Virus record (IMG/VR): IMGVR_UViG_2541047726_000007 | Reading direction: 5' to 3' (one strand) | Source: a virus | Taxonomy: Duplodnaviria > Heunggongvirae > Uroviricota > Caudoviricetes | Length of the DNA stretch: 23,312 nt | Shown: positions 9,929 through 11,988 of the stretch, piece by piece | Numbering within the stretch: the first letter of the stretch is position 1 | Layout: each line of letters starts with the position of its first letter | Notes under the pieces: generated by a model | Seen by the model: the letters and a program-made list of their open reading frames with translations, nothing else | Databases searched by the model: none | Told to the model about the DNA's origin: nothing | Program-made: the position numbers and the translations under genes

Positions 9929-10510
9929 ATGAACAACTCATGGTGGCAGGAACTAATGCATTTTTTCCTGCAAGGAATGACACTTAAACAGTTGATTCAT
10001 ATGCTAATCATCCTGATCATATTGATTATTGTTATGCCGGTAAGCGTAAAAGAATGGATAAACCTGCATAGTCCAGAAATCCTTCCTCATTACTGGATGT
10101 ATTACATCCTGTTGTTTTGCGTTAGCTATGTGCTTAACGGCGTTGTTAATTCCGCTTATCACGCTGTGACTGAAAGAATTGAGGTATTCGCTGCTCAGAA
10201 GCGCAAATCTAAAGAAGAAAAATATGTGCAAGATTTGTTTGATTCGTTAACTCTTGGAGAAAGAGCGTATTTGGCATTCGCTGTAGCCGCTAATAACCAG
10301 CTACAAACGGAAAAGGGCGCTCATGAATCAATTTCATTGCTCAAAAAAGGACTCCTCGTTCGAAGGCCTCCTGCTGTTGGATATCCTGATACCGACCGTT
10401 TCGTTATCCCTGAAAGCTATAGACATGAGTGCTACATTAGGTTTGCCGGGAAGGCAGACAGCCTTATGGATGAACTTATCGCTCAGGATAAGCATGGCAA
10501 AAACAAGTAA
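9929..10510 (+). CDS. sieB: Superinfection exclusion protein B (membrane protein)
   Basis: 193-aa product with hydrophobic N-terminal helices, lambda SieB-like; transcribed opposite to the pL operon as in lambda. Confidence 0.85.
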   Translation: MNNSWWQELMHFFLQGMTLKQLIHMLIILIILIIVMPVSVKEWINLHSPEILPHYWMYYILLFCVSYVLNGVVNSAYHAVTERIEVFAAQKRKSKEEKYVQDLFDSLTLGERAYLAFAVAANNQLQTEKGAHESISLLKKGLLVRRPPAVGYPDTDRFVIPESYRHECYIRFAGKADSLMDELIAQDKHGKNK

Positions 10511-10526
10511 TTAGCAAATGAATTTA

Positions 10527-10799
10527 TCATCTCGCCGTCAGTTGTTTTGATTTCCGGTAGCCTGCCGCGTAAAGAGCTACGTTCGGAAGACAAGTTGAAC
10601 CTTCATATTTTCTGGTCAACGTTGTCAGAGTTATCACTTCTGCTCTCATTGCTGGTTTGAGCTTGCATTGCAAGACCACTCGTGAAGGGGTTGGCCTGTG
10701 TAGCTTGTCGGAGCTGATCGCCTCCTGACTTTGCAGATTTGCGCGACGAGCTCTACGGCGAGAAGCTGCGGTGCCTTTAAATTCTGTTTTTCTGGACAT
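10527..10799 (-). CDS. N: N-like transcription antiterminator (90 aa) with an arginine-rich motif, not lambda N
   Basis: N-terminal GTAASRRRARRA motif; first gene downstream of pL/nutL; GGAGG site before the ATG at 10797-10799. Confidence 0.7.
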   Translation of the reverse strand: MSRKTEFKGTAASRRRARRANLQSQEAISSDKLHRPTPSRVVLQCKLKPAMRAEVITLTTLTRKYEGSTCLPNVALYAAGYRKSKQLTAR

Positions 10800-10824
10800 G
10801 GATTCCTCCCGAATAAACTTTGGC

Positions 10825-10871
10825 GATGCAATCTCGAAGCTCCTCCTGAGACGGTTGCTTCGGCATTGCAT
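10825..10871 (-). promoter_or_regulatory. Long imperfect hairpin in the N leader (candidate RNase III site / translational control element)
   Basis: 15-nt arms GATGCAATCTCGAAG and CTTCGGCATTGCATC (2 mismatches) separated by 17 nt, 26 nt upstream of the N start. Confidence 0.4.
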
Positions 10872-10897
10872 CCCACAGCTTATGTGGTTGGGTGATC

Positions 10898-10942
10898 TGG
10901 CTTTTCAGCCACGTAGTCGAGAGTCGACGTTGTTTAAAGAGC
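10898..10942 (-). promoter_or_regulatory. nutL candidate: boxA (GCTCTTTAA), spacer hairpin, boxB (UGGCU-GAAA-AGCCA)
   Basis: boxA-like nonamer and a GAAA-loop hairpin on the minus strand between pL and N; same architecture as the nutR candidate. Confidence 0.5.
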
Positions 10943-10984
10943 CTGCCAGTCTGTTCCATTTGGCTTCCAGCGTCCTGCTGACGG

Positions 10985-11020
10985 TTAAATAGTACGATAT
11001 GTACTTTACAAGATCAATAC
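10985..11020 (-). promoter_or_regulatory. pL/oL candidate (TTGATC-17-TACTAT with an embedded AGTACATATCGTACT palindrome)
   Basis: Sigma-70-like hexamers about 36 nt upstream of boxA; the palindrome resembles motifs in the cI-cro intergenic region. Confidence 0.35.
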
Positions 11021-11199
11021 AATTTGTTGTAAGTTGGCGTGGTTTTTTATAACGCTTTGTATTTAATAGTGTTGTTTTTTAGCGTGGATGTATTGCCTCG
11101 GCGATGTAAGGAGAGATCAGAATTGCGTGGTTTAGTGGGTTGCATCTATTTATTTTTCAATAAATATAATTGGTTATGTGTTTTTAGGTGGGCGAACGT

Positions 11200-11232
11200 G
11201 AGGCAAAGAAAACCCGGCGCTGAGGCCGGGTT
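11200..11232 (-). terminator. Intrinsic terminator ending the cI-geneA-geneB operon
   Basis: Perfect 8-bp stem AACCCGGC/GCCGGGTT with a 6-nt loop, followed on the minus strand by UUUUCUUUG, 3 nt after the gene B stop. Confidence 0.7.
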
Positions 11233-11235
11233 GTA

Positions 11236-11988
11236 TTATGCTGCAAGTCTCTTAACCCAAGTCTCTCTTTTGGAGAATGGTAGAACTTGGCTTGATTCAT
11301 GGAAGAGTAAGGAGAGTTGTTGCATTTGATCACCAATTGCTTCGCTGTCTATAACAACAAATCTGTTGTTATACTCCTCACTTGAAGCTTTAAGATCAAT
11401 TAGTTTCCCAAGCAATGAGTAAGCACTATTCCAGCTTCCTCCGTGTTTCACGCTTGATGTAAAAACGTATTTAGGTATGTCGGTTTTTATTGTTACAGGG
11501 ACGGTAATTTGATGTCCACTCAAGCCATATACGTTTTCACGAAGAGAAAGTGCGTCTCTAAGCTCTGTGTGATATAGATAATCAATAACCATACTTTCAA
11601 ACTTTTCAGCTTGAACTGGCTGATACCAGTCTAACGACAAAGTTGATGCGAGTATACCAGCTCTAATTATGTTCGATGTAATCGCACCGACATCCTTTTC
11701 TGTTGCCCAAGCAATGATTTCTCCTCGAGCATTGAGTTCTGCGCCTTCTTTAAGCAGTAATTGTCGTATCTCATCAAGTCGTTTTTTGGTAAGCGAGATC
11801 CCTCTTGCCTCCATATTCATTAAGGCATCGCATCTGTCACTAACTAAATACCTACCATTGACTTCACGGATAAAGGCACCGACATGCTCTCCATCATCAC
11901 AGTAAGTGAATGGACTGATAATTCTCAAGGTCTTGCCTATTGGATGGCATTCGAAACCTAGTTGTGAGATCACTGTTGAGCACATCAT
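11236..11988 (-). CDS. Hypothetical protein, rex-position cassette gene B (250 aa)
   Basis: Long ORF whose ATG overlaps the gene A stop (ATGA); AT-rich; no transmembrane segments evident. Confidence 0.7.
   Translation of the reverse strand: MMCSTVISQLGFECHPIGKTLRIISPFTYCDDGEHVGAFIREVNGRYLVSDRCDALMNMEARGISLTKKRLDEIRQLLLKEGAELNARGEIIAWATEKDVGAITSNIIRAGILASTLSLDWYQPVQAEKFESMVIDYLYHTELRDALSLRENVYGLSGHQITVPVTIKTDIPKYVFTSSVKHGGSWNSAYSLLGKLIDLKASSEEYNNRFVVIDSEAIGDQMQQLSLLFHESSQVLPFSKRETWVKRLAA

Follow-up and report, generated by a model that had tools for sequence, protein, structure and literature searches.

The window analyzed here, a 23,312-nt stretch of DNA, belongs to a lambdoid phage. In a sequence search, its segment 10500-11250 was 100% identical to the Escherichia phages ev017, ev207, PhiR57_1, and PhiR63_2, and it shared 93-94% identity with VT2-Sakai, an Stx1-converting phage, and many Stx2a phages. 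The segment carries, on the (-) strand, the leftward promoter pL, the antitermination site nutL, and the gene of the N protein:

11017..10989, (-): pL promoter, with the -35 element TTGATC at 11017-11012, a 17-nt spacer, and the -10 element TACTAT at 10994-10989
10942-10934, (-): nutL boxA, GCTCTTTAA (RNA GCUCUUUAA)
10928-10916, (-): nutL spacer dyad, GUCGA-CUC-UCGAC
10910-10899, (-): nutL boxB, GGCTGAAAAGCC (RNA GGCUGAAAAGCC)
10810-10804, (-): Shine-Dalgarno (SD) sequence of N, GGGAGGA, 5 nt upstream of AUG 10799
10799-10527, (-): N open reading frame of 90 aa, with its AUG at 10799-10797

The N reading frame was taken from the list of open reading frames, and pL, boxA, and boxB were read directly from the sequence. 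A promoter scan of the window did not call pL; the promoter occupies the position of the feature named "putative major leftward promoter" in VT2-Sakai, whose annotation was mapped to the window by an offset of +9926. Likewise, the "putative N-utilization leftward" feature of VT2-Sakai maps to approximately 10903-10943, and the same 273-nt N CDS (90-aa form) is annotated in that phage. The N protein of the window matches the Pfam family PF25694 (N_peptide), is 100% identical to P0001, and contains the arginine-rich motif MSRKTEFKGTAASRRRARRA. We take the spacer dyad at 10928-10916 to be a "reducer" of the H-19B type, the name used by Neely and Friedman (2000). In relatives, the arms of the dyad are kept, and loops of differing length and sequence are found between them (CUC, AUC, ACUC, ACAC, GCAC).

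As GTCAGCAGGACGC in the window is homologous to ATCAGCAGGACGC at position +1 of lambda, transcription from pL probably starts at about G10982, which would result in an N leader of 183 nt. The 5' end of this leader, from the start to boxA, is common to many lambdoid phages; the hairpin segment discussed below is specific to the N type of the window. Leaders of this type were present in 58 phage records and in the viral contigs fetched (more than 80). Across loci L003-L082, this N leader is found next to five or more pL/operator (immunity) sequences that are unrelated to each other (window ~10982-11020). The junction falls right at the start motif ATCAGCAGGACGC, which lambda shares, and thus looks like a mosaic boundary at +1. 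Farther upstream, a terminator-like hairpin, AACCCGGCCTCAGCGCCGGGTT, followed by a T-run, is found at 11232-11211 (-), just downstream of a DUF1828 ORF (11988-11236); the annotation of VT2-Sakai has a rho-independent terminator of the pRM transcript at a roughly corresponding place.

An earlier note on this DNA had described a hairpin at 10825-10871 with 15-nt arms, 2 mismatches, and a 17-nt gap, and had proposed that it may be the analogue of the RNase III-processed leader structure of lambda. Our inverted-repeat search recovered the same object with the same 2 mismatches, but the geometry was one base off: the arms, 10825-10840 and 10857-10872, are 16 nt each and 14 of 16 positions (88%) are complementary, with 16 nt between them. 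The hairpin lies, as proposed, between nutL and the N ribosome-binding site, flanked by boxB (10910-10899) and the SD sequence (10810-10804), and its 3' end at 10825 is indeed 26 nt from the A of AUG 10799. Folded as N-sense (-) RNA (10872-10825), it reached -24.8 kcal/mol compared to -13.9 ± 2.8 kcal/mol for dinucleotide shuffles (z = -3.88), and 1 of 200 shuffles was as stable. Structure prediction in the transcript context gave a stable fold as well, with pair probabilities of 0.995-1.0 for the hairpin in the ensemble of the whole leader. It is composed of the following parts:

10872-10865 with 10832-10825, (-): inner helix of 8 bp, GAUGCAAU/AUUGCAUC
10864-10863 and 10834-10833, (-): 2x2 internal loop (GC/AG)
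10862-10857 with 10840-10835, (-): upper helix of 6 bp, CGAAGC/GCUUCG
10856-10841, (-): apical loop of 16 nt, in which four more pairs are possible and which displays the SD-like sequence CAGGAGGAG

According to the predicted folds, these 48 nt make up only the inner helix and the apex of a larger structure that also includes their immediate surroundings. In the MFE structure of the leader context, the hairpin is extended downward by an 11-bp basal helix (10883-10873 with 10823-10813), so that the complete stem-loop spans 10883-10813 (~71 nt) and ends 2 nt before the SD sequence. In the inner part of the basal helix, UGG (10875-10873) pairs with CCA (10823-10821) across a bulged G, with CC (10823-10822) opposite GG (10873-10874). 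In the outer part, AUAAGCU (10883-10877) pairs with AGUUUAU (10819-10813) beyond a G-A mismatch (10876/10820). The additional features are:

10873..10883, (-): element B, 5' strand of the basal helix, AUAAGCUGUGG, from MFE folds and columns 4-14 of alignment A2 (see below)
10824, (-): bulged G, which is G or A among relatives and is the counterpart of lambda A195
10823-10813, (-): element C, 3' strand of the basal helix, CCAAAGUUUAU, from MFE folds and alignment

The predicted helices amount to 10 (of 11) + 8 + 6 bp, and another 4 bp may form inside the loop; a mismatch, a bulge, and a 2x2 loop interrupt the pairing. This length is in the range of RNase III substrates, i.e., irregular helices of about two turns or more (≥ ~20 bp). 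The probability of the outer helix was 0.65 when the sequence from the transcription start site (TSS) to +40 was folded and 0.99 in the boxA-to-AUG context. With its G-A mismatch at 10876/10820 and one G-U pair, the outer helix of the window is weaker than that of other leaders, and without it the remaining duplex of 14-18 bp would be short for RNase III. A permissive scan of 10300-11400 against Rfam 15 (E up to 10) returned no match overlapping 10813-10883, and apparently no curated Rfam family covers N leaders. A candidate long-range pairing of AAGCUGUGG (10881-10873) with CCGCAGCUU (10771-10763, in the N ORF) had a probability below 0.01 and uncompensated linked variants, and was dismissed as a chance match.

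Within the family of the window, for which we compiled 19 unique variants from 85 related loci, most changes affect unpaired positions, i.e., those of the apical and internal loops, the bulge (G10824 to A), and the mismatch (A10820 to G). The changes A10881G, A10871G, and C10857U are compatible with wobble pairing, while three singleton variants disrupt the outer (basal) helix. Apart from two of the wobble-compatible changes, the arms of the hairpin are invariant in variants of the same length. No double compensatory changes were found in these arms among the 19 variants, and the upper 6-bp helix and the loop showed no covariation; since the arms are nearly invariant, the case for the upper helix stays one of thermodynamics and within-family conservation. 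The SD-like sequence of the apical loop varies even among close relatives (GGAGGGG, GGAGTAG, GGAAGAG, GGGGGTGG), which makes a specific role of the loop, for example as a ribosome decoy or standby site, doubtful.

Inverted repeats of this size occasionally arise by chance, and both DNA strands can form the hairpin, as would be compatible with a chance palindrome or a site acting at the level of DNA. However, chance is at odds with the stability of the fold (z = -3.9, with 1 of 200 shuffles as good), with the invariance of the arms in the same-length variants of the 85 loci (save the two wobble-compatible changes) next to loops that vary, and with the covariation of the inner helix across leader types described below. 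An intrinsic terminator was rejected because the hairpin is followed by GCCAAAGUUUAUUCGG, which contains no U-tract, and a terminator scan did not call the hairpin either. We therefore regard a chance palindrome, a DNA-level site, a terminator, or a pause hairpin as very improbable.

Coding sequence offers another explanation, in which the hairpin lies inside an N-terminal extension of a 114-aa N protein starting at ATG 10871. This ATG is in frame with N, and the record of an Stx1 phage (AP005153) annotates the long form (601-945 of locus L002). Yet no SD sequence is found upstream of ATG 10871, which sits within the stem, and a strong one precedes AUG 10799 by 5 nt. Locus L013 has a frameshift in the extension, and L111 has a stop codon and a frameshift there, with the N ORF being intact in both. 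In addition, VT2-Sakai is annotated with the 90-aa form, and other N types do not have the extension. A coding role of the hairpin is thus extremely improbable, and the 114-aa start in some public records is probably wrong.

In order to place the stem-loop in a broader context, N loci were collected from viral contigs and from one representative genome per species; further loci came from contigs encoding N proteins 82-48% identical to that of the window and from annotated phages with other N types, including lambda. The leaders share a common order of elements, namely boxB, element A (CCAAAG), element B (N7-UUUGG-GRUG...), a hypervariable apex, and element C (...CAYC-R-CCAAAG-N7'), which ends ~10 nt before the SD sequence. 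Upon unconstrained folding, the CC of CCAAAG paired with the GG of UUUGG in 41 of the 44 unique leaders. The three exceptions are L059 and L083, which have one disruptive point change each, and L115, which has no stem-loop.

We then aligned 27 distinct leader types as gapless mini-sequences anchored on the two GG/CC pairs (alignment A2). Lambda, 21-, P22-, and 933W-type leaders are among them, and all share a 19-bp helix with a one-base bulge. In this alignment, 90.3% of the cells were paired, a value somewhat favored by the anchors, which were taken from per-sequence MFE folds; shuffles gave 70.7 ± 1.2% (0 of 500 reached the observed value) and slid partners 34-45%. Thirteen of the 19 pairs were changed on both sides, cells with double changes numbered 102 compared to 34 expected, and the covariation score was 0.565 versus 0.199. 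The low scores obtained with slid partners and the variety of pair types within single columns argue that the covariation signal is real. The two GG/CC pairs were invariant in 27/27 leader types. The inner helix of the hairpin (10872-10865 with 10832-10825) corresponds to columns 15-22/27-34 and covaries across types as well. The window carries UGUGG where other leaders have UUUGG, which results in its one G-A mismatch. Overall, the strong covariation suggests that the basal helix has been kept by compensatory evolution across lambdoid N leaders, and together with the alignable basal helix it argues for the kinship with the lambda structure that the earlier note had proposed, and does so with more force than an analogy would.

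The apex of the stem-loop is hypervariable and ranges from a 7-nt loop to about 150 nt (L120, L087, and L112 versus L106, L107, and L128). Many 21-, P22-, and Pantoea-type leaders share the apical module GAAUUGCAG ... GAAGAUAAGCAUC, which is absent from lambda and from the window. The structure of L120 combines a tiny apex with an inner helix of only 5 bp. In L115, a metagenome scaffold with an N protein 64% identical to that of the window, comparison with L114 and L121 showed that the stem-loop is precisely missing between two CCAAAGTTAA direct repeats, boxB being directly followed by CCAAAGTTAACTCAGGAGG-ATG. L115 is apparently a natural hairpin-less N leader that arose by recombination between the repeats. 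These two leaders, L120 and L115, show that the element is dispensable in some phages.

For the comparison with lambda, we verified the lambda leader sequence, in which the leader index + 34 gives the position in the transcript. The predicted fold of this leader contains the pairs G88-C196 and G87-C197, with A195 as the bulged base. Steege et al., in 1987, reportedly found that RNase III cuts the lambda leader at +88 and +197. Presumably, these cuts sit in the basal helix and flank the two G-C pairs that are invariant in 27/27 types. With G88 paired to C196, cuts at these positions would leave the canonical 2-nt 3' overhang around these pairs. For double cuts made by E. coli RNase III in vivo, a transcriptome-wide study reported that the two positions between the cuts are paired in ~90% of the targets, with a preference for G-C/C-G (PMC6212723). 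The window keeps both the bulged purine and the two G-C pairs, and its local context fits this in vivo rule. In lambda, RNase III is a positive regulator of N (PMC9032294, citing Kameyama 1991) and targets the N leader (PMC5371410, citing Steege 1987). A dependence of N translation on rnc and on an intact stem is reported for lambda in the work cited by PMC9032294 and PMC5725501.

Based on position and sequence, the hairpin is very probably the counterpart of the RNase III-processed lambda structure in a leader of the VT2-Sakai type. We further consider it likely that the stem-loop 10883-10813 is the counterpart of an RNase III processing site whose cutting raises N translation; for the phage of the window, both the RNase III cut and its influence on N translation are inferred from lambda. 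Homology to the lambda site between G88 and G89 would place the 5' cut between G10873 and G10872, and the 3' cut is predicted between C10822 and A10821. Both predicted cuts are thus located just below the arms of the hairpin rather than within them.

Such a processing event would involve a staggered double cut by host RNase III in the basal helix, on either side of the invariant G-C pairs. The cut would part a 5' fragment of ~110 nt bearing nutL from the N message, with the hairpin being excised and the N mRNA left with an unstructured 5' leader of 22 nt. N translation would be raised by the removal of a bulky helix whose base is 2 nt away from the SD sequence, and additionally by uncoupling the N ribosome-binding site from the cis-repressing complex of N, Nus factors, and RNA polymerase at NUTL. 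The supply of N, and hence the outcome of the lysis-lysogeny decision or of induction, would then track the RNase III activity of the cell.

According to PMC5725501, which cites Wilson 1997 and 2002, N and Nus factors at NutL repress N translation, and the leader in between is "highly structured". The stem-loop might be a compaction or insulator element that RNase III leaves unprocessed, and that shortens the distance from NUTL to the N ribosome-binding site for repression by the N-Nus-RNA polymerase complex or protects the leader from decay. PMC5725501 also suggests that the structured leader may compact the loop between NutL and RNA polymerase, the hypervariable length of the apex is as expected if only closure of the base matters, and the outer helix of the window is marginal. 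In contrast, conservation is highest precisely where lambda is cut, at the bulged purine and the invariant GG/CC pairs, in agreement with the RNase III rule (PMC6212723), and cleavage of the homologous lambda helix is reported in the literature cited by PMC5371410 and PMC9032294. Compaction without processing is in our view quite unlikely, and compaction and cleavage do not exclude each other.

Additional information on the fate of such structures comes from P22B, a 96-nt small RNA of phage P22 encoded "just upstream of gene 24", which is abundant in infected cells and in outer-membrane vesicles (PMC13397905, 2026). We found that P22B matches nt 80-175 of the leader L129 (Salmonella phage Emek, P22-like) exactly. 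Gene 24 is the P22 homologue of N, and P22B makes up the 3' half of the homologous stem-loop in its leader, ending at the last paired base of the basal helix; an origin from a stem-loop is not stated in PMC13397905. This match indicates that fragments of the homologous element accumulate in vivo. The end of P22B is at the base of the helix, away from the RNase III site predicted there, so that nucleases other than RNase III may be involved in processing these leaders.

The exact match of P22B also raises the question of whether the stem-loop is the precursor of a stable phage small RNA that acts in trans or is exported, with the excised hairpin or its 3' half as the functional product; the SD-like CAGGAGGAG in the apical loop of the window would be in line with this. 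However, P22B has no known target or function, and any leader that is processed should give rise to structured fragments that accumulate. A conserved seed acting in trans is disfavored by the lack of apical conservation from one leader type to another and by the variation of the loop even in close relatives. The literature was also searched for links between nutL, Shiga toxin, and sRNA, and nothing was retrieved. Overall, we consider a small-RNA precursor decidedly unlikely, although such a role would be compatible with cleavage.

Besides element C, element B can pair with a second partner:

10883..10887, (-): element A, CCACA, pairing with UGUGG at 10877-10873 (element B)

The A:B pairing (10887-10873 in the window) excludes the basal helix. 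In the TSS-to-+40 ensemble, A:B had a probability of 0.33 compared to 0.65 for the outer helix, and it is the MFE structure of the 5' fragment. In other leaders, the pairing consists of CCAAAG with CUUUGG, and it is found in nearly all N-leader types. The resulting hairpin of 5-7 bp closes exactly at the two G's adjoining the predicted 5' cut. For its analysis, we used anchored mini-sequences of 20 types (alignment A4), as raw segments were out of register in MAFFT due to differing loop lengths. Here, 88.6% of the cells were paired versus 80.5% in shuffles and 21-61% when slid. Compensatory changes comprised A-U to C-G in the family of the window, A-U to G-C in L108, and G-C to C-G in the P22 type. 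Where element B departs from UUUGG (window, L108), it is element A that compensates and not element C, which suggests that the A:B hairpin itself is under selection. Hypothetically, the hairpin could have its effect while the leader is being transcribed, or it could form the 3' terminus of the nutL fragment once this is released.

Taken further, these data would allow the lambdoid N leader to be a conserved three-part RNA switch (A, B, C) that is more than a cleavable hairpin. Elements A and C would compete for element B. Once RNase III has cut next to element B, A:B pairing would close a hairpin precisely at the 3' terminus of the nutL fragment, thereby displacing the N mRNA. The products would be a stable NUTL RNA with a 3' hairpin cap and an excised stem-loop RNA (compare P22B), and the CCAAAG direct repeats would serve as recombination handles by which the hypervariable apex is swapped or deleted (as in L115). 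A switch of this kind is an unlikely extension.

Viewed as the counterpart of the lambda processing site, the stem-loop of the window is a newly recognized copy of a known control element in a new leader type, and the textbook picture is extended but unchanged. In lambdoid phages, the tempo of early gene expression is set by N. In the Shiga toxin phages that share this leader (VT2-Sakai, the Stx1 phage, and others), the path to late transcription and toxin release begins with antitermination by N. Provided that N synthesis is gated by RNase III here as in lambda, the activity of the host enzyme would be a testable input to induction and toxin output in a large group of phages. Furthermore, the signature UUUGG-GRUG ... 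CAYC-R-CCAAAG just before an SD sequence could help to annotate N leaders and N start codons correctly.

With regard to known systems, lambda cIII and T7 R1.1-type sites are irregular hairpins in 5' leaders at which processing by RNase III raises translation (PMC5371410, PMC9032294). The window resembles them in having an irregular hairpin with internal loops in a 5' leader; there is no homology in sequence or position, and the mechanisms differ, binding of RNase III to cIII shifting alternative structures at the ribosome-binding site. P22B, as a fragment of a homologous stem-loop, differs from the window in its apical sequence, and its ends are not at the lambda-type RNase III positions.

Another parallel is offered by the rrn leader. 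The boxC of lambda nutL, GGUGUGUG, presumably is the 5' strand of the inner helix. BoxC has been counted as part of nut (PMC2724277). Like the boxA-boxC/16S stem of rrn, the lambda N leader has an antitermination site (boxA, boxB) with a G/U-rich boxC behind it, and this boxC provides the 5' strand of a helix cleaved by RNase III. In rrn, however, the partner strand lies ~1.7 kb downstream and the product is an rRNA, whereas the window has a local helix (~70 nt) before the start codon of an mRNA.

The RNase III site in the N leader of lambda, the proposed counterpart, is a large stem-loop between NUTL and the N ribosome-binding site whose processing is reportedly described in the work of Steege et al. 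1987, Kameyama et al. 1991, and Wilson et al. 1997 and 2002. The N protein of the window, of the 90-aa VT2-Sakai type, belongs to a different sequence family than lambda N. Unlike lambda, the window has a G-A mismatch in the outer helix and an H-19B-type nutL with a spacer dyad; the apical segment beyond the 19-bp helix is 28 nt compared to 86 nt in lambda, with unrelated sequences. Their location in the pL transcript is the same, as each element follows boxB and reaches almost to the SD sequence. Their basal helices align without gaps (putative cuts marked by slashes): GGCUUUGG/GGUGUGUG ... CACACACC-A-CC/AAAGCU in lambda and AAGCUGUGG/GAUGCAAU ... AUUGCAUC-G-CC/AAAGUU in the window. Lambda and the window have in common a bulged purine and a couple of G-C pairs enclosed by the putative cuts, and their SD sequences lie in similar surroundings (GGAGAAUCC and GGAGGAAUCC, respectively).
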